DNA of 64,000 nt from Nitrososphaerota archaeon (GTDB taxonomy: Archaea; Thermoproteota; Nitrososphaeria_A; Caldarchaeales; Caldarchaeaceae), in NCBI GenBank assembly GCA_041641305.1, contig JBEPYN010000002.1:544001-608000 (forward strand). Direction: 5' to 3'. Every line of letters starts with the position of its first letter. The stretch's first letter is position 1. The notes under the pieces were generated by a model. The model saw only the letters and a program-made list of their open reading frames with translations. It had not been told where the DNA came from and did not search any database. The position numbers and the translations under genes were made by a program. Of this stretch, positions 51,588 through 59,729 are shown piece after piece.

Positions 51588-52166
51588 ATGCAAAACATGG
51601 CGGATATAAATCAGGCTAGAATGATTGGCGGTATAGGCTCTATTCTTCTTGTTCTCGCAATCGTGCCGAGTGTCGGACCTGTTCTCAGCATCGTCGGCTT
51701 CATCTTAGTATTGCTGGCGTTGAAGTATGTGGCTGATGCTGTTCAGCAGCGGGCGATTTTTCAGAACGCTTTATACGCTGTTATCGTCGGGATAATAGGT
51801 GCCATTATCGGTATTGTGCTTGGCGGTGCGACGTTTTTCGCGTTTACAGGGTTTGGCTTAGGTCCAGCAGAGTCACCGGCAGACTTTCTCTCGTTGTTGA
51901 CGGGGATTCTCGTGGCAATCGTTGTTGTGTGGATTTTCGCCGTCATCTCAGCATTCTTTTTCAGAAAATCGCTGTATTTAACGGGGGACAGCCTAGGCAT
52001 AAAACTATTCAGAACAAGCGGCCTCCTGCTGTTTCTCGGAGCCATTCTCACAATAATTCTTGTTGGGTTTATTCTATCACTTGTCGCGTACATTCTGCTG
52101 GCCGTGGCCTTTTTCCAAATTCCTCAGACAGGTGCGCAGCCTCCACCGCCTCCACCACCGCCCTAA
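51588..52166 (+). CDS. DUF996 family membrane protein
   Basis: GGIGSIL..IVGFILVL.ALK..AD, F.TSG.LL..GAIL.IILVG; poly-Pro tail. Confidence 0.8.
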   Translation: MQNMADINQARMIGGIGSILLVLAIVPSVGPVLSIVGFILVLLALKYVADAVQQRAIFQNALYAVIVGIIGAIIGIVLGGATFFAFTGFGLGPAESPADFLSLLTGILVAIVVVWIFAVISAFFFRKSLYLTGDSLGIKLFRTSGLLLFLGAILTIILVGFILSLVAYILLAVAFFQIPQTGAQPPPPPPPP

Positions 52167-52900
52167 CCCACTGCGAGATCCTCTAGAGACTTCATAAGTG
52201 AAGAGGCGAACCCTCTATCCTTCACCCAGACAACCACGGGCTCGTCGTCGAGGGGCAGACCTATAATAGCCTCGCCGCCATCAGTAACCAGAATATCCAA
52301 TAGAACAGCCTCGCTGAAATAGACTTTTGCACCGATTTTCTCGAAGAACCAGTAGTCATCTTGATTTGGCTGAACTGAGGGATGCAGTATGAAGGTGAAT
52401 GTTTTGTCCGGAAACCCTGCGACAACTTTCTTAAACTCCTCCTTAAGTTTAGCCGCTTTCTTGACCGCGAAAATGAACTTGTTACCCGTATAGACCATTT
52501 CACTAAGCTTAACCAAAACTGGCTGAAGCCCCTTCAGTATAGAGGCATGCGCCTCGACATCTTCTCGTCTCCGGAGCCTCGAGACAACTGGAACAAGTTG
52601 CTCAATCATCCTCTTTTTCTCCATCATCTGCGACTCCTGACTCGTCCGCTCCCTCTCAAGCCACATGGTGAAGGCGGAGACTGGGTCGGAAACTCCGTAG
52701 CCGTTGCTGGTCTTAGTCAAAAACCCGTTCTCATACAAACTCGATAGAACATCGTAAACACGTGTAATTGGGATTTTTGATCTGCGGGCTATGTCGGCTG
52801 GCCTGCTGTATCCCTTCAATACAGCGACATAGGCCCTCGCCTGATACTTATTGAAGCCGAAAACCTTTTGCAGCGTCTCCGCCAGCTCGTTTTCCTCCAC
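52163..52900 (-). CDS. TrmB family transcriptional regulator
   Basis: GFNKYQARAY, SKIPITRVYDVLSSL wHTH; PLD-like C-terminus. Confidence 0.88.
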   Translation of the reverse strand: MEENELAETLQKVFGFNKYQARAYVAVLKGYSRPADIARRSKIPITRVYDVLSSLYENGFLTKTSNGYGVSDPVSAFTMWLERERTSQESQMMEKKRMIEQLVPVVSRLRRREDVEAHASILKGLQPVLVKLSEMVYTGNKFIFAVKKAAKLKEEFKKVVAGFPDKTFTFILHPSVQPNQDDYWFFEKIGAKVYFSEAVLLDILVTDGGEAIIGLPLDDEPVVVWVKDRGFASSLMKSLEDLAVG

Positions 52901-52955: not shown

Positions 52956-53660
52956 ATGCAGAAACGGGAGTATGGACTAGGCCCAGATTGGTGGCCTGTT
53001 ATGAGGTCTTTGGAGAAGCTGGCCCCCGTGTATGATAGGTTGAACAAAACAATTTCTTTCAACACGGATGTGGGGCTTAGGGTTGAGTGTCTCGAGGGCA
53101 ACGTGGGTGTGGTGGATAGGGTGCTTAACGCGGGGTCTGGGCCCGGTGTCTTCACCGAGATTTTGCTCGAGACGCAGAAGTGGCAGGGTGACGCGGTCTT
53201 GCTCGACCCCCTGCCCACCATGCATATGCTTGCCCGAGAGAAGGTGCCTCATAACATATCGCATCAGGTGGCTGGGGTTTTTGAGCGGATGCCCTTTAGA
53301 GAAGATGTGTTCGACACTGTTTTGATGGGTTTCTCGCTGCGAGACGCGTCCAACATGGCCAAAGCTCTTTCCGAGATCCGGAAAATATTGAGAAAAGGTG
53401 GCCGACTGCTCGTCGTTGACCTCGGCAAGCCGGCTAACATTTTGAAAAGATTCGCGATAGGCGTTTACTGGGCTTTGGTGGCCCCTGTCCTGGCCTCGTT
53501 TAAGCTGGGGAAAACAGGGTTAGAGGCCGCCGCAATCTACAGAACCTACCGGCGGCTCCCGACAAATACGGAGCTAAAATCCCTGCTTAAGATGTTCTTC
53601 GAAACAGTTGAGGTTAGGGAGAAAATTCTCGGCGGTGTGGTGGTCGTTAGGGCCGGCTGA
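52956..53660 (+). CDS. Class I SAM-dependent methyltransferase (UbiE/MenG-like)
   Basis: YDRLN..ISF, VLNAGSGPG, MPFREDVFD, FSLRD, GGRLLVVDLGKP. Confidence 0.85.
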   Translation: MQKREYGLGPDWWPVMRSLEKLAPVYDRLNKTISFNTDVGLRVECLEGNVGVVDRVLNAGSGPGVFTEILLETQKWQGDAVLLDPLPTMHMLAREKVPHNISHQVAGVFERMPFREDVFDTVLMGFSLRDASNMAKALSEIRKILRKGGRLLVVDLGKPANILKRFAIGVYWALVAPVLASFKLGKTGLEAAAIYRTYRRLPTNTELKSLLKMFFETVEVREKILGGVVVVRAG

Positions 53661-53698: not shown

Positions 53699-55162
53699 AT
53701 GGAGAGCACCGACCTGGAGAAATCGCTGTTCCCAACTGGCCATCAGGTATTCGACCGAATAGTTTACTTCAGACACGGTATGACCGTGCTTGTCACCGAC
53801 GAGACCTTCAGCGAAGCAAAAACATTCCTACGCACGCTTCTGAAGAATCATCAACAATCGCTTATAGAGCTTGTGTCAACCCGCTACCCCCAAACAGATC
53901 CCAAACAGGTTCCAGTACCGATAGAGGCGCTGCAAGACCTATCGATAAACGTGAACCAGAAAAGGAGAGCCGAGAAAAACCGGATATTCATTCACAGCTA
54001 TCTCCCAGAGCTGCTCATCCGCCACAACGGCGACGAGGTGCTCAAGCTTTTAGAGATGTGGCAAAAAGACGTCGCCAACTCCGGAAACCTTGAGTTCTAT
54101 CTCCTTCCACGCAACACCTTCGCAGACTTCGAGAGAAAAGCCAAAGCAATCGTCGACGCCGCAATAGAGATTCAGGTCATTAAAGAAAACAACCAGTTCC
54201 TCTACTACTTCACACCCATTAGATCATGCTCACCAGCCCACCACCTGAAAAACATACGATACGAAATCAAAGAAGACCAACTACTAATAGAATGGGAGGG
54301 GGTTATGTTAGAAACATTCACAACGGAACAGCTAACAAGCAAACAAATCAGAGAAAAGATTGAAACACATGAAGACCAGATAATCATAACATTGGGAAAA
54401 TTCGACCCTAAAAACTTCTCGGTAGAAGACTATGTCTTACTAACATCGCTTAACGGGGAACGCCTTTCAGACTTTAAATTACTCTACCCTGACAGATGGG
54501 ATGAGATTCTAGATAAGATAACATTCTGGACTTTAACAGGTGTCATAAAAATGGAGGAAACCCACCCGGTTAAGAGTCACAAGATACGTAACAGGTTAAA
54601 ATTCAAGAGCAAACTACTGTTAAAAGTTCCACCGAGAATTGGCTTAAAACTAGTATCGTTGTTCGAAGGCGTCCTAGGGAAGAGGCTGAGAACAGTTCCT
54701 CTTGATGCTCATTTGGCTGTATTAGATGCTGTTAAGAACATTGTTGACGTGGTTTCCGCAGAAAGGCCTGAACTAAGAAGAGAGGCTCAACTTGCAACAA
54801 GGTATTTTGGAGAATTATCAGCTAGGAGAACGGCATTAGAACATGTTATAAGGCTCGAAGGTACACCCTATACCGTTTTTAACCTCGAAGATGTACCGAG
54901 TTTAATTGCGCTCACATTAAAGATTGGATGGGGATTAGACACAAAATTCATCTCTACAACTAAAGGAAGTTGGCTCTTTGAGATAACTAAATGTCATCTA
55001 TGTGAAGGCATAATAGATAAAGAGCCATTTTGTGACAAATTTGTTTCAAGCGTAGTGGTAGGAGCTCTGTCAGTCTGTTTAAAGAGACGTTTTGAATGCT
55101 TCGAAGTCACCTGTAGGGCCGCAGGGTCCGATAAATGCCGTTTCAAAACATTCACTGTTTGA
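53699..55162 (+). CDS. Inactive KaiC/RAD55-like domain fused to a C-terminal V4R domain
   Basis: FPTGHQVFD, degenerate Walker A (DETFSEAKT) and B (IFIHS), IVDAAIEI; V4R CHLC..PFC..G.L..E..CRAAGSDKCRF. Confidence 0.75.
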   Translation: MESTDLEKSLFPTGHQVFDRIVYFRHGMTVLVTDETFSEAKTFLRTLLKNHQQSLIELVSTRYPQTDPKQVPVPIEALQDLSINVNQKRRAEKNRIFIHSYLPELLIRHNGDEVLKLLEMWQKDVANSGNLEFYLLPRNTFADFERKAKAIVDAAIEIQVIKENNQFLYYFTPIRSCSPAHHLKNIRYEIKEDQLLIEWEGVMLETFTTEQLTSKQIREKIETHEDQIIITLGKFDPKNFSVEDYVLLTSLNGERLSDFKLLYPDRWDEILDKITFWTLTGVIKMEETHPVKSHKIRNRLKFKSKLLLKVPPRIGLKLVSLFEGVLGKRLRTVPLDAHLAVLDAVKNIVDVVSAERPELRREAQLATRYFGELSARRTALEHVIRLEGTPYTVFNLEDVPSLIALTLKIGWGLDTKFISTTKGSWLFEITKCHLCEGIIDKEPFCDKFVSSVVVGALSVCLKRRFECFEVTCRAAGSDKCRFKTFTV

Positions 55163-55179
55163 AGAAAAACTTTACAGCT

Positions 55180-56025
55180 ATGAACCATAATACAATCCGA
55201 AAAATTAAGGGGTTTGTGGCCTTGTCCAAGTCGTATTTCTCCCTCCTAACCTCCACGTTTATGGCCTCAATTACTGTCCTGCTTGTTGCAAATCCTCATC
55301 CCTCACAATTCATTAACATTGTGTTGTTCTTCTTTTTATCGACATTTTTTCTGAACAGCTATAACAACTTAGCGGACATCAATTCGGATATCTTGACTAA
55401 AGAAAATTTTCCTTTGACGAAGGGAGTTATTTCACCTAGGGAAGCTGCGATATTTTCTGCATTAGTTTTTCTAACCGCCACACTCGCGCTAATTCCGTTA
55501 ATGATGCAGAATTTATTGGTATTTTTTGTTCTTTCACTCGACCTACTCCTAGGATATGTATATTCAGTGCCAAAGATTAGGTTGAAAAAGTATCCAATAA
55601 TAAAGGGCTCTGCCCTGATAACGCATACGGTTTTCTTCCCCGTATTGGCCGGCACCTTTTTGACTGGAAAGGATGTTTTCGATTATTGCGCGATAATGGT
55701 TCCCATCTATTTCATGGGGCTAGCTGTTCACACAGTTCAGGATATAGGTGATGTCCGCGGTGACTTGGCAGTGGGCGATAAAACTTTGCCATTGATACTA
55801 GGTCTCAGGAAGTCTGTCTGGTTAGTATTAGCTCTAATAACAATTGCCGCTTTATACTCATGGATACTAGTTGACACCGAATACTTGATCATAATCATGC
55901 CGCTGTTTCTCGTTCAAGGTCTTCTGTTCAGCATACTGCTCCAAAAGCCAAACCTATGGGAAAGGGTTTACAAGGGTTCAGCCCTTATTTCACTTATTGT
56001 ACTAGTCTTGTTTTTAGTTAGATGA
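55180..56025 (+). CDS. UbiA family prenyltransferase
   Basis: NNLADINSD, FPLTKG, YSVPKIRLK, QDIGDVRGD..G.KTLP; multi-TM. Confidence 0.88.
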   Translation: MNHNTIRKIKGFVALSKSYFSLLTSTFMASITVLLVANPHPSQFINIVLFFFLSTFFLNSYNNLADINSDILTKENFPLTKGVISPREAAIFSALVFLTATLALIPLMMQNLLVFFVLSLDLLLGYVYSVPKIRLKKYPIIKGSALITHTVFFPVLAGTFLTGKDVFDYCAIMVPIYFMGLAVHTVQDIGDVRGDLAVGDKTLPLILGLRKSVWLVLALITIAALYSWILVDTEYLIIIMPLFLVQGLLFSILLQKPNLWERVYKGSALISLIVLVLFLVR

Positions 56026-57178
56026 TGTCTGAATAATGCAAAATCTTATCAGAGCAGCGTGGATACAAGAAGTCAACGAAATTTACTGGGTTCTTCGACT
56101 GGTAAAACCATTTGCGAACAGAAAAGATTCTGAGAACATTCATGCTCGCTATTAGACTGTCCACATCGAAGTCAATACATTTTGAGGCTTTTTTCATAAA
56201 TTTAATCCCTTTCAGATAATAAAGGTCGCCGAGCCTAATCGTCTGACTTTTGATGAAACCATTTTTTAGTGATTCTTTCGCATCTGCCATCAACCCTAAG
56301 TCACGTCCCAGATAGACAACGCTGTTAAGTATACCTAGTTCGATGTCAACCTTTAGGTCTGCGACATCATCATATAGATTGGCTGCTTTCAGTACGTAGT
56401 CGAACCCTTTTCTCAAGTAATCAAACCCCTCAATTTCGCGTGGTGTTCTAATGCATAAGTTCTCTAACATACATAGGTCGAGTCCCACCCAGATTCTTCC
56501 CACGCCTTTCTCATTCATCTCTCTAAGATAGTCGCGGATTGTCAGGTTTTCACGCGCAAGTTGGTTTTGCTGTCTAAATGATGCTTTTTGGCCGGAAAAA
56601 TAGAGGTCAAGGTCTCTTAGAAATTCTATGCTCGACATCGTTGCAGGATTTGGAAGTGATTGGAGCCATTTGTTGACGAGGAGTGCCAGTAATATACATG
56701 AGTTTTCAGCTCGTTTTACGATGTCGTTGTTTCCAGCTGATATGTATATGCCTTCTTCGATGGCTTTTTTCTGTCTATGGAGCGAGTGCTCAGCCTCTTC
56801 GGTTGTGTGAAAGGTGTCGTTGATGTTGTCGAGGACTTTTATGCTGAGAATTAGCGCCATCTTGGCGAGAACTGTTGAGAGAATTTGTGTTCTCGTAGCT
56901 TTTTTGTGAAGAAGCGGGTAGGCTGAGATGGTTGCCATGTATGACGAGTACGGCAAATACTTCTCTTTCATGACGCCGAGGTTCATCATTTCCTCGAGGC
57001 TTGCCGTCTCCTCTCCTCCTAGGATGTTTTCCATGGTTTTGCGGAAGTAGTTGGATGTTTCCCGTATGATGCAAAGCATCTGCGACAGGTTTTTCCTGTT
57101 GCCCGCTATGTATCGTAGCATCAACAGGCCCGCGGCTTTTGTAAAGTGGTCTAACCCCTCCCCCCTATTCTGATTCAT
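56018..57178 (-). CDS. Class I isoprenoid synthase/terpene cyclase-fold protein
   Basis: Asp-rich motifs KVLDNIND and NLYDDVADLKVD..LGILN; GQ..S and EKG helix motifs; all-helical. Confidence 0.65.
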   Translation of the reverse strand: MNQNRGEGLDHFTKAAGLLMLRYIAGNRKNLSQMLCIIRETSNYFRKTMENILGGEETASLEEMMNLGVMKEKYLPYSSYMATISAYPLLHKKATRTQILSTVLAKMALILSIKVLDNINDTFHTTEEAEHSLHRQKKAIEEGIYISAGNNDIVKRAENSCILLALLVNKWLQSLPNPATMSSIEFLRDLDLYFSGQKASFRQQNQLARENLTIRDYLREMNEKGVGRIWVGLDLCMLENLCIRTPREIEGFDYLRKGFDYVLKAANLYDDVADLKVDIELGILNSVVYLGRDLGLMADAKESLKNGFIKSQTIRLGDLYYLKGIKFMKKASKCIDFDVDSLIASMNVLRIFSVRKWFYQSKNPVNFVDFLYPRCSDKILHYSDII

Positions 57179-57210
57179 GTTAAAATTATTTTGACGCTGG
57201 AAAATAAGGT

Positions 57211-57945
57211 TTAGATAACTTTCTCGGTGGGGTAAACCTCCAAGCCGCCAATCACGAATTTATAGGGATGAGGCTCTACGTCGTGGTCCACTCCCCTCAT
57301 TTTCTCGACTTGAATCGAGCTTGCAACGGTTGCATTCTTAAGATATTTTCTCAGAATTATTACACCGTCCGCCAAATACTCTTCGAACTGATAGGGTCTC
57401 TCGGCTCCGCTGTAACGTAGCTCTGTCAGCAGGAGGGTGGTGCACCTTAACGGCGTTATCCCCTCTAAAAGCTCCAGAAAAGCCGCCCGCCTCTCCGCAA
57501 CCCGTGGATACTGTATGAAGAAGGATGTTAGAGAGTCGATGACAAGTCTTTTCGCGTTGATGTTTCTTACATGGTTTCCGACGGCCGCTATCAAGGCCGC
57601 GAGGGAGAAATCTTTTTTACCGATGGATATGCCGCCGAGCTTTATCTCACCCGGTATCGTTCTAATCGGAGATGCGTCGACTATCGATAATCTGCCTTCT
57701 TTTATAAAAGGCTCAAGGTCTATGCCCAGGTTTGCCACGTTACGGAGAACGCTTTCAGGCCTCTCATCGAGAGTCACGTATATGCCGTTCTCTCCTTTTA
57801 GGCATCCGTGGTACAGGTACTGGAGGCCGAGGGTGGTTTTCCCGGAGCCGGGGGAGCCCATGACCACGATGTTAAACCCGGCGGGAAACCCCTTATTCCC
57901 CAAGAGAACGTCAAGGCCGCTGACGCCCGTGCTTATATACTCCAT
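57211..57945 (-). CDS. KaiC/RAD55 family ATPase (single domain, intact motifs)
   Basis: ISTGVSGLD, GSPGSGKT, LVIDS, EEYLADGVI, VEKMRG. Confidence 0.92.
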   Translation of the reverse strand: MEYISTGVSGLDVLLGNKGFPAGFNIVVMGSPGSGKTTLGLQYLYHGCLKGENGIYVTLDERPESVLRNVANLGIDLEPFIKEGRLSIVDASPIRTIPGEIKLGGISIGKKDFSLAALIAAVGNHVRNINAKRLVIDSLTSFFIQYPRVAERRAAFLELLEGITPLRCTTLLLTELRYSGAERPYQFEEYLADGVIILRKYLKNATVASSIQVEKMRGVDHDVEPHPYKFVIGGLEVYPTEKVI

Positions 57946-58031
57946 TCTTTCTCCATCAATCACGCATAAATTGAATGTAAGAATGATATAAAATTTTGAA
58001 GAACTCTTTTTACCGGCAGTAGGGAGGTTCC

Positions 58032-58856
58032 TTGGGTTTGCGGAGGTACTTGGTGGCCGTTTTACCGGTTTTGACGACTTTGGTTTTTGCTATGGTTTTT
58101 CAGTCGCTGTTGAGTGGTGTGATGTTGCCTCAGCCTCCGCTGGCGCCGTTGCAGGAAGAGGATGAGGATGTGGCTGTTCTAGGGTCTCCCACACCCTATC
58201 TAAACAGCCTGATTGTGATAGCGGTTATTTTTTTGGGCAGCCTCGCTATGCTCTGGCTTATACGATACCGCAGAGCCCTCGCAGTCATCGTGTCGGTGGT
58301 GCTTTTCGCCACCGCGGCTTCTGTCACTTTCCTTTTCCTGTTTATTTCGACCAGTCTGGGAGAGGATGTGTTGTTGGGTGTCTCGGTGATGGTGGGCGGG
58401 CTGGTTTTGGCGGGAGTGTTTTCGAGGCGTGAAGTGTTTAACGTGTTGGCTGCGGCTTATGTGGCTTCAGCGAGCGGCGTGATTTTCGGAATTTCCCTGC
58501 CTTTCTGGACATCGCTTGTCCTGCTTGGAGCAGTTGCGGTTTACGACGTGGTCGCGGTTTTCAGGGGCCATTTGAAGAGGCTGGGAAACATGGATATGGG
58601 GGAGCTGAGAGGACTGGTTGTTACTGTCGAGGGCCTCAGCATAGGGTTGGGCGACCTCTTCTTCTACTCCGTTGCCCAGAGCTTCGCGGCAAGCAACCTC
58701 GGTTGGATGTCGGGGATGGCAGCCTCCGCAGGCCTCATAGCCGGATACCTCTTAACCATCAAGCTTGCGGAAACGAGGCCTGTCTTTCCCGGGCTGCCGC
58801 TCACTCTGCTGGTTGCGATGGTCTGCGCTTTTCTCATCACTCTCATACCACTGTGA
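58032..58856 (+). CDS. Presenilin/signal peptide peptidase family (GxGD) intramembrane aspartyl protease
   Basis: VYDVVAVF (YD), IGLGDL (GxGD), PGLP (PAL-like); multi-TM. Confidence 0.88.
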   Translation: MGLRRYLVAVLPVLTTLVFAMVFQSLLSGVMLPQPPLAPLQEEDEDVAVLGSPTPYLNSLIVIAVIFLGSLAMLWLIRYRRALAVIVSVVLFATAASVTFLFLFISTSLGEDVLLGVSVMVGGLVLAGVFSRREVFNVLAAAYVASASGVIFGISLPFWTSLVLLGAVAVYDVVAVFRGHLKRLGNMDMGELRGLVVTVEGLSIGLGDLFFYSVAQSFAASNLGWMSGMAASAGLIAGYLLTIKLAETRPVFPGLPLTLLVAMVCAFLITLIPL

Positions 58857-58859
58857 AAG

Positions 58860-59729
58860 ATGATGACACCTGAGGAGGTTGCGAGATGCTGCACACTCGG
58901 CCTCTTGCTTGAGCTCGCGACATCGCCAAAACCCGGGCTGGTTGACAGGCTGTCCAATCCCGCTGCCTATGCACAGTTCACCGCCTCTGCCGTCGCGCTG
59001 TATAGATCTTTTTTGAATGCAGGTAAAGGCATGACCGTTGGCGAGGCCGTTCTACATTCATCCCGTGAGATGCTGAGCTGGCAGAAAGGAGGGAACACAC
59101 ATCTCGGCGCCATCCTACTTTTAACACCCATCGCAAAAGCAGCCGTCGCTGCACAAAAATTCGGGAATCTACGCCGCAGCTTATCGAAAACACTCAAGGA
59201 AATGGATCACAGAGACTTGCACAAGATCTTGACCGCCATAAAGCTGGTGCAGCCTGGTGCGCTGGGAAAGGTAGCATACCTTGACGTTAACAACGTGAAA
59301 ACATACGAATTGGTGAAGCGTCGCAAGACCTCTGTCACCGAAGCGTTTAAACCCTACACACGTGTTGAAGTCGTAGCTCATGAATACTGCACAAACTACC
59401 AAGCCAGCATAATGTATGGCTACCGGTATCTAAAAAAAAGAATAGACCACGAGGACTGGAACACGGCGGGGCTAAACACGTTCCTAAACATTTTACAGAA
59501 TCTCCCGGATAGCCACGTGTCACGCAGGCAGGGTAGACACGCCGCCAGAATTCTCTCCAGAATGGCTAAACAGGTTCTCGATGCTGGGGGAGTGGGCACT
59601 GCTGAAGGCGGCCGCAGATACACTCAGCTAATCAAAATCGTTAAGAGAGCGGGAATGAAGCCCGCTGCGGCCGCAGACATATTGGCCGTAGCCTACACCC
59701 TGCTTCTGCTAAACGGCTGGAGACCATGA
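58860..59729 (+). CDS. Triphosphoribosyl-dephospho-CoA synthase (CitG) family protein
   Basis: LEL..PKPGLVDR, NTHLGAILL, PDSHV.R..G, PAAAAD. Confidence 0.85.
   Translation: MMTPEEVARCCTLGLLLELATSPKPGLVDRLSNPAAYAQFTASAVALYRSFLNAGKGMTVGEAVLHSSREMLSWQKGGNTHLGAILLLTPIAKAAVAAQKFGNLRRSLSKTLKEMDHRDLHKILTAIKLVQPGALGKVAYLDVNNVKTYELVKRRKTSVTEAFKPYTRVEVVAHEYCTNYQASIMYGYRYLKKRIDHEDWNTAGLNTFLNILQNLPDSHVSRRQGRHAARILSRMAKQVLDAGGVGTAEGGRRYTQLIKIVKRAGMKPAAAADILAVAYTLLLLNGWRP

Follow-up and report, generated by a model that had tools for sequence, protein, structure and literature searches.

The regulators XylR, DmpR, PoxR and MopR possess a V4R sensory domain for aromatic effectors, through which a ligand controls an ATPase module. 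Among the archaeal KaiC-like and inactivated KaiC (iKaiC) proteins, an active single-domain KaiC is found beside an inactivated KaiC fold fused to a sensor-type domain. To our knowledge, the inputs of archaeal KaiC-like ATPases are not known, and very few enzymes of the terpene-synthase type have been described from archaea. In the ComQXPA system, an isoprenyl transferase is combined with a variable sensor domain (PMC4008528). We analyzed a stretch of 64,000 nucleotides (the window; positions 544,001 to 608,000 of contig JBEPYN010000002.1, assembly GCA_041641305.1) from the 1.66-Mb, 99% complete genome of a Nitrososphaerota archaeon of the Caldarchaeaceae (G000). Close homologues bear the name Candidatus Caldarchaeum, so the organism is a hot-spring archaeon of this group. 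The window contains a locus of four genes that encode a protein with the predicted fold of class I isoprenoid synthases (the synthase-fold protein), a sensor protein in which a KaiC-fold domain is followed by a V4R domain of the XylR/DmpR type, a single-domain KaiC-family ATPase, and a UbiA-family prenyltransferase (Table 1).

The synthase-fold gene and the sensor gene are tightly linked. Among 400 Thermoproteota genomes, the former was found in 26 and the full-length sensor in 29, and both were present in 25. The two genes lie no more than 1.35 kb apart in all 24 genomes, from six families, that have both on one contig; in the remaining two synthase-positive cases they are at contig ends. Their order and strands vary between families, with at least four arrangements, and same-strand operons occur in one family (f2). 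A KaiC gene adjoins the pair in three families (the window's own, Methanomethyliaceae, and f6), HAD hydrolases of two subfamilies adjoin it in five lineages, and a GGR-type reductase adjoins it in Bathyarchaeia, where it overlaps the synthase-fold gene by 8 bp. UbiA is a neighbor in the window's own family only. Apart from KaiC, these neighbors are enzymes of isoprenoid or phosphate chemistry. Because the adjacency is invariable and the accessory genes differ between lineages, the conserved core is the synthase-fold enzyme with the sensor, and KaiC, HAD, GGR, and UbiA are lineage-specific additions. The first-pass annotation had described two pairs, each of one signaling gene and one isoprenoid enzyme, and had named the co-occurrence of the four families in archaeal genomes as a check. 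The linkage is indeed not a matter of chance, but it is a different pair that is conserved, and the other two families accompany it only in part. In Methanomethyliaceae and Bathyarchaeia, the V4R proteins encoded next to the synthase-fold genes can be aligned with the sensor over their own full length (27–28% identity).

Homologues of the synthase-fold protein (P0003) were found only in Caldarchaeum and other Nitrososphaerota, Methanomethyliaceae, and Bathyarchaeia, and none of them has a Pfam domain. A search of 1.84 billion proteins with a 33-member profile yielded 68 representatives without leakage into known families. The isoprenoid-synthase fold, which had been proposed from the sequence, was supported by an AlphaFold2 (AF2) model with a pLDDT of 91.4. 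The best structural match (VIA) of this model was tolypothrichol synthase (9kgb; Z = 22.2, root-mean-square deviation 3.6, 297 residues aligned), and further matches were 7e4o (Z = 21.5), the class IB enzyme 5yo8 (Z = 21.4), and trans-isoprenyl diphosphate synthases (trans-IPPS; Z of about 20). Foldseek also matched the protein to the class I fold (E = 2.5e-5), and the ESM Atlas gave TM scores of 0.66 and 0.70 between it and a PF19086 cluster. The predicted structure is that of a class I alpha-helical terpenoid synthase. At the sequence level, a Pfam search of P0003 itself gave no match. PF19086 matched 6 of the 33 members over the metal-binding region below the threshold (best 20.7 bits, cut-off 23.7), and none of the family reached it. 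No PF00348 match, which would indicate trans-IPPS membership, appeared in the Pfam search of P0003, and an hhalign comparison with 22 Caldarchaeales IPPS, covering both IPPS families of the genome, gave a probability of 0.2%. The sole stretch aligned there places the GQ and K224 on the GQ and KT motifs of IPPS, a suggestive but not significant match. PDB sequence searches with the sensor (P0001), P0003, and profile A1 gave nothing usable.

Residues K71, K73, D117, N118, D121, G196, Q197, K224, D270, D271, D274, D278, R350, R355, and K356 are invariant in the alignment of the synthase-fold family. Although the sequences are only about 30% identical, they all share fifteen charged or polar residues in the places that serve to bind Mg2+ and diphosphate. 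The first motif is DNxxD (D117-N118-x-x-D121) instead of DDxxD, and the second is DDxxDxxxD, in which D270, D274, and D278 have the spacing of an NSE/DTE triad, yet all three are Asp. Judging from the model and these residues, it is very likely that the protein binds a prenyl diphosphate and is enzymatically active. It may be a cyclase or eliminase, or a transferase.

The sensor protein had been described as a fusion of an inactive KaiC with V4R. Residues 1–205 form a KaiC/RecA-fold domain without Walker A or B; the Walker A position reads DETFSE, and a conserved Walker B Asp is absent. Residues 6–200 match the KaiC CI/CII domains with Z scores of 16.8 (8dba) and 16.6 (5yz8), and Foldseek matched the N-terminal domain to KaiC with an E value of 1e-8 and a TM score of 0.67 to 4tlc. 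However, neither Pfam nor hhalign (against a single KaiC and a 17-member alignment; probability 0.3%) linked the sequence of this domain to KaiC. The KaiC fold and the V4R domain of the description stand; the label "dead KaiC" is based on the predicted fold only. Residues 208–300 form a middle alpha/beta domain, which looks like a winged helix by the order of its secondary structures in the model; a protein-atlas feature search with residues 208–395 gave no usable match. A hydrophobic segment of low model confidence follows (residues 302–322). For residues 308–487, the model aligns with the entire effector domain of DmpR and PoxR (6iy8 and 5fru; Z = 12.9, 161 residues), and this C-terminal domain also matches the lipid-binding TRAPP protein Bet3 (Z = 12.2). 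The Pfam match of the sensor to V4R is below the cut-off (24.9 bits against 31), while V4R was matched by all 28 members of the sensor family with a best E value of 5.7e-12. C432, C435, C445, E469, C472, and C480 are invariant in the family. The zinc site of DmpR consists of Cys151, Glu172, Cys177, and Cys185 (PMC7264223), and C445, E469, C472, and C480 of the sensor show a similar C...E...C-x7-C pattern. The C-terminal part thus has both the complete XylR/DmpR-type sensory fold and the Cys/Glu site. A second pseudo-KaiC-V4R protein of 449 residues, 29% identical to the sensor, is encoded on contig 1 of the same genome (462368–463681; L067:6992–8341, minus strand). It lies between two genes for Mrp/Nuo antiporter-like membrane subunits with no synthase-fold gene nearby, and it is also present in most congeners.

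The KaiC protein was correctly recognized as intact; its Walker A sequence is GSPGSGKT. The GxPGxGKT motif, the catalytic Glu (E67), and the Walker B Asp (D143) are invariant in 17 orthologues, and together with the PF06745 match they place the protein in the KaiC family. Every allele of UbiA retains both of its Asp-rich motifs, NxxxDxxxD and DxxDxxGD, intact. The protein is closest to the digeranylgeranylglyceryl phosphate (DGGGP) synthase (DGGGPS) and chlorophyll-synthase types, although it reaches no equivalog cut-off; its best NCBIfam matches are DGGGPS-type models (64–66.5 bits, cut-offs 269–296). Of the six UbiA genes in the host genome, two encode heme O synthases; the others are a MenA-like gene, one of the PRK12875 type, one of the DGGGPS type on contig 3, and the copy at the locus. 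The first-pass annotation had stated that its proposal would fail if the locus copy were the housekeeping DGGGP synthase. A better candidate for that role is the gene on contig 3, which scores 254.9 bits to PRK12884 (255 against 66 for the locus copy). Since the contig 3 copy scores far higher and the locus UbiA is missing from 4 of 10 congeners (G081, G144, G206, and G308), the sequence comparison identifies the locus UbiA as an accessory DGGGPS-like paralogue and not as the housekeeping enzyme. Two canonical IPPS genes are present elsewhere in the host genome. A canonical polyprenyl synthase gene (PF00348, 223 bits) also lies about 1.3 kb from the PRK12875-type UbiA gene (342 bits) on contig 2 of G000 (249878–252627; L083, L009) and forms a separate IPPS-UbiA pair with it.

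The central part of the locus is a block of low GC content. It had been noted as an AT-rich core of about 54.2–57.2 kb; the lower GC is real (39–42% over about 54.25–56.65 kb, against about 50% in the flanks), but the block is narrower, with exact edges at 54319|56664. It includes sensor residues from about 208 to 487, the whole of UbiA, and synthase-fold residues from about 173 to 386. In a comparison with another Caldarchaeum assembly (L068), the flanks of the window are 97–100% identical, while the region of about 54,300–56,650 is only 49–69% identical. At the protein level, the flanking genes are 98–100% identical, whereas the values are 63% for sensor residues 205–487, 47% for UbiA, and 59% for synthase residues 175–386. 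The part of the sensor gene for the pseudo-KaiC domain shows 97–100% nucleotide identity to L068 and 91% protein identity to a further genome (G018), which carries a third allele of the block. Contigs from two further hot-spring studies have 2339 bp between 54319 and 56664 instead of the 2344 bp of the window, the same length as in L068, and another hot-spring study yielded the block allele of the window unchanged. On its left side, the block has its edge exactly where the pseudo-KaiC domain ends; its right edge is in the middle of the synthase gene. The catalytic and Cys residues are retained in all alleles. The low GC (37–44%) is confined to the block and to the clade of G000, L068, and G018. 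The AT-rich core is therefore an allelic replacement block.

The observations comprise the folds, the conserved motifs for metal and diphosphate, the close adjacency, and the exchange of ligand-related parts as a block. Going beyond these, we infer a substrate, a product, a ligand, a KaiC hetero-oligomer, and an output as follows. The synthase-fold protein would bind a prenyl diphosphate, for which geranylgeranyl diphosphate (GGPP), an abundant C20 compound, is the likeliest candidate. With Mg2+ held by D117/D121 and D270/D274/D278, it would ionize or transfer the prenyl chain. In Caldarchaeum, the DGGGPS-like UbiA paralogue would add a second, membrane-embedded prenyl transfer, and in other lineages a GGR-type reductase or an HAD hydrolase may take its place. 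The hydrophobic product, or the precursor pool, would serve as the ligand for the V4R domain (of the DmpR/PoxR type) in the neighboring sensor. Binding would alter the association of the dead KaiC domain with the active single-domain KaiC, and the changed ATPase activity or phosphorylation state of KaiC would pass the signal to the output.

The conserved enzyme-sensor module is well founded. To the further reading that the enzyme's own product is sensed through V4R and a KaiC hetero-oligomer, we give a probability of about 0.5. New support for it comes from the block, in which half of the sensor, the whole of UbiA, and the C-terminal half of the synthase are swapped together. Several observations weigh against it. 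In four congeneric species, the sensor and KaiC are retained although UbiA and the synthase-fold gene are both missing, in the same synteny of RpiA, DUF996, TrmB, methyltransferase, sensor, KaiC, presenilin, and CitG genes; the sensor/KaiC pair therefore works there without a self-made product. KaiC is not adjacent to the pair in families f2, f44, and f59 (G377) or on the metagenomic Bathyarchaeia contigs L002 and L004, and no output domain was identified. Membership at the sequence level was found neither in the terpene synthases or IPPS for the synthase-fold protein nor in KaiC for the N-terminus of the sensor. Block-wise divergence is seen in the G000/L068/G018 clade only and not in other close congeneric pairs; a contrast between N- and C-terminal divergence was sought in Methanomethyliaceae, f2, and f6 and was not found. 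Moreover, the exchanged parts are contiguous, so one recombination tract would move them all, whatever their function.

The absence of the enzymes from the four congeners is more simply read as a loss, given that the synthase-fold/sensor pair occurs in the sister genus as well as in other families. In one of these congeners (G081), the sensor and KaiC genes are separated by a spacer of 255 bp (L044:5132–5385), for which blastx returned a weak match to UbiA in its conserved motif region (E = 0.006 in a tiny database). The spacer may be a deletion scar, which would hint at loss but not prove it. Contig 17 of the same genome (19436–19975; L095) also has a polyprenyl-synthase-like match that contains two in-frame stops, at a distance of about 14 kb from the sensor gene. 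The 230-bit IPPS type of other genomes was not found in this 95% complete assembly.

The strict adjacency, which includes the same-strand operons of f2, could also arise in a module that does not signal, with the V4R protein as a carrier, chaperone, or regulatory subunit that delivers a hydrophobic substrate to the synthase-fold enzyme or receives its product, and with KaiC driving extraction or assembly with ATP. Such roles have been proposed for BchJ-type V4R proteins and for the lipid-binding Bet3 fold, which the sensor also matches, and its hydrophobic segment could sit on a membrane. However, the sensor gene persists in the four enzyme-less congeners, its paralogue in the same genome has an unrelated context, and its C-terminal domain finds its best structural matches in the domains with which transcription activators sense their effectors. 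We consider this explanation unlikely.

The block invites a bolder proposal, in which Caldarchaeum strains communicate by a strain-specific isoprenoid, diffusible or membrane-borne, that is made by the synthase and UbiA and read by the V4R/dead-KaiC receptor via the KaiC ATPase. The exchanged block of 2.3 kb would then set strain specificity and define "pherotypes", as in comQXP and agr, and the receptor-only congeners would be eavesdroppers; this would be the first archaeal terpenoid quorum-sensing system with specificity groups. A polymorphic block over synthesis genes and the ligand part of a receptor, between conserved flanks, is indeed what the locus shows. Its sharp edges and low GC, the three alleles that are mutually 47–70% identical on backgrounds of 82–100% identity, the recovery of both alleles in independent hot-spring studies, and the existence of receptor-only congeners fit this picture, and ComQXPA follows the same logic (PMC4008528). 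On the other side, the locus has no export or secretion component, and there is no sign of a product being released from the cell. The polymorphism was seen in a single clade only, a truly identical background is documented for two alleles only, and contiguity alone can explain the co-transfer. Intercellular signaling of this kind is thus decidedly doubtful.

A low-GC block between conserved flanks, with presence and absence between species, is also reminiscent of low-GC O-antigen loci. The locus might accordingly be one for a variable membrane or surface lipid, a cell-envelope isoprenoid made by UbiA and the synthase-fold enzyme under diversifying pressure, for example from viruses, with the sensor half hitch-hiking, and the membrane protein UbiA is the most diverged part (47–53% between alleles). 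This proposal has little to recommend it, as the linkage conserved across six families is that of the sensor and the synthase-fold gene, not that of UbiA, the block edge lies exactly at the domain border of the sensor, and no PADLOC defense family was matched apart from a trivial P-loop match for KaiC. It is highly improbable that the synthase-fold protein is only a non-catalytic, prenyl-diphosphate-binding or scaffold protein in a neighborhood that reflects some other regulation: its DNxxD motif and its position below the threshold of every enzyme family might suggest this, but the fifteen invariant residues at about 30% identity speak against it, and active class I enzymes with altered motifs are among its structural matches (8kih and 5yo8).

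The coordinates are collected in Table 1. The four genes and their identities were as first annotated, with agreement of the open reading frame (ORF) coordinates and fitting Pfam and fold assignments. The ORFs of UbiA and the synthase-fold protein are convergent and overlap by 8 bp at their stops (56018–56025), a point that also holds as first noted, and the KaiC gene shares the strand of the synthase-fold gene and precedes it by 32 nt. Alignment with orthologues places the UbiA start at the ATG at 55180 instead of 55135. This is probably the true start, so the overlap with the upstream sensor gene is doubtful.

Table 1. Positions of the genes and segments of the locus in the window
Feature	Position	Strand	Length	Basis
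Sensor protein "V4Rlong" (P0001)	53699..55162	+	487 aa	ORF list, fold, V4R matches
UbiA-family prenyltransferase (P0002), divergent	55135..56025	+	296 aa as called	PF01040, E 1.9e-26
Orphan class I isoprenoid-synthase-fold enzyme (P0003)	56018..57178	-	386 aa	Predicted fold
Single-domain KaiC-family ATPase (P0004)	57211..57963	-	250 aa	PF06745, E 2.1e-56, 191 bits
UbiE/COQ5-type methyltransferase	52956..53660	+		PF01209, E 1.8e-17
Conserved part of the sensor gene (pseudo-KaiC domain)	53699..54319	+		Nucleotide and protein comparison
Low-GC allelic block	54320..56663		2344 bp	Strain comparison

The methyltransferase gene is UbiE-like, co-oriented, and just upstream, as had been pointed out, but we found no tie to the module. 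We rejected it as a member of the cassette; it is kept in genomes without the enzymes and sits outside the variable block. A gene for a TrmB-family regulator (52163–52900) is divergent from the methyltransferase and sensor genes, and its synteny is kept across the family. On the other side of the locus, a gene for a presenilin/signal-peptide-peptidase homologue is directly followed by one for a CitG-type triphosphoribosyl-dephospho-CoA synthase (58032–59729), and this pair adjoins KaiC in every genus member examined. In family f6 (L055:9712–15178, G029), type IV pilus or archaellum-type genes (two T2SSF and one T2SSE) come after the synthase-fold gene, together with two further KaiC-like genes. 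A weak TrmB/HTH_36 protein is encoded near the pair in family f2 (L057:11146–11934).

The locus fits a self-made isoprenoid signal without proving one. The module offers a candidate source of ligand for one branch of KaiC signaling and an enzyme that is open to testing. It also defines a small, clean family, in which an enzyme of the class I fold is always found beside a DmpR-like sensor for hydrophobic ligands with a pseudo-KaiC domain. If the block reflects specificity, archaeal cell-cell signaling would be opened to experiment; otherwise, the block remains a clear example of recombination in which breakpoints fall on a domain border. We found no paper that pairs such an enzyme with such a sensor and no published description of the V4R fusion or of its fixed pairing with an isoprenoid-synthase-fold gene; the key KaiC survey by Makarova, Galperin and Koonin (2017; cited in PMC5847659) was outside the reach of our literature search, and an earlier description is possible.

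Compared with known enzymes, the synthase-fold protein is closest to the bacterial class I terpene synthases (PF19086/PF03936; 9kgb and the pimaradiene-type 7e4o), with which it shares the fold at Z scores of 21–22 over 274–297 residues. We take the terpene-synthase scheme to consist of an Asp motif, a diphosphate sensor, an NSE/DTE-type triad that follows this sensor by 46 residues, and basic residues about 80 positions after the triad. In the protein, one long helix likewise ends in an Asp-rich motif, a basic residue stands 46 positions before the triad, and basic residues stand about 80 after. It differs in its sub-threshold Pfam matches, the DNxxD motif, the all-Asp triad, the archaeal hosts, and the V4R sensor gene that always adjoins it. 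With trans-IPPS (PF00348), ComQ, and MoeN5 it shares the fold (Z of about 20) and the order of elements, namely a basic pair, an Asp motif, GQ, K, DDxxD, and C-terminal basic residues, but its first motif is without the second Asp, and it does not match PF00348. Its motif spacings fit both the terpene-synthase scheme and the order of IPPS regions I–VII. The class IB large-terpene synthases (beta-curcumene/prene synthase; 5yo8 and 6loo) are among the top three structural matches, with 311 residues aligned at a Z score of 21.4 and no match in sequence; we assume that their DYLDNLxD motif resembles the LDNIND of the synthase-fold protein. The locus UbiA belongs to the same family as archaeal DGGGP synthase and has both Asp-rich motifs intact, but it is far below the equivalog cut-offs and absent from 4 of 10 congeners.

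The sensor differs from XylR and DmpR in that the partner of its sensory domain is an N-terminal RecA/KaiC-fold pseudo-ATPase, not an AAA+ sigma-54 activator. It has no clear DNA-binding domain, its host is an archaeon, and the expected ligand is an isoprenoid instead of a phenol. Unlike ComQXPA of Bacillus and agr of Staphylococcus, the locus has no peptide gene, and its components are unrelated to theirs. The likeness is one of logic only: in all of them, a sharp-edged polymorphic block covers a modifying enzyme and the ligand part of the sensor, while the signaling part is conserved.

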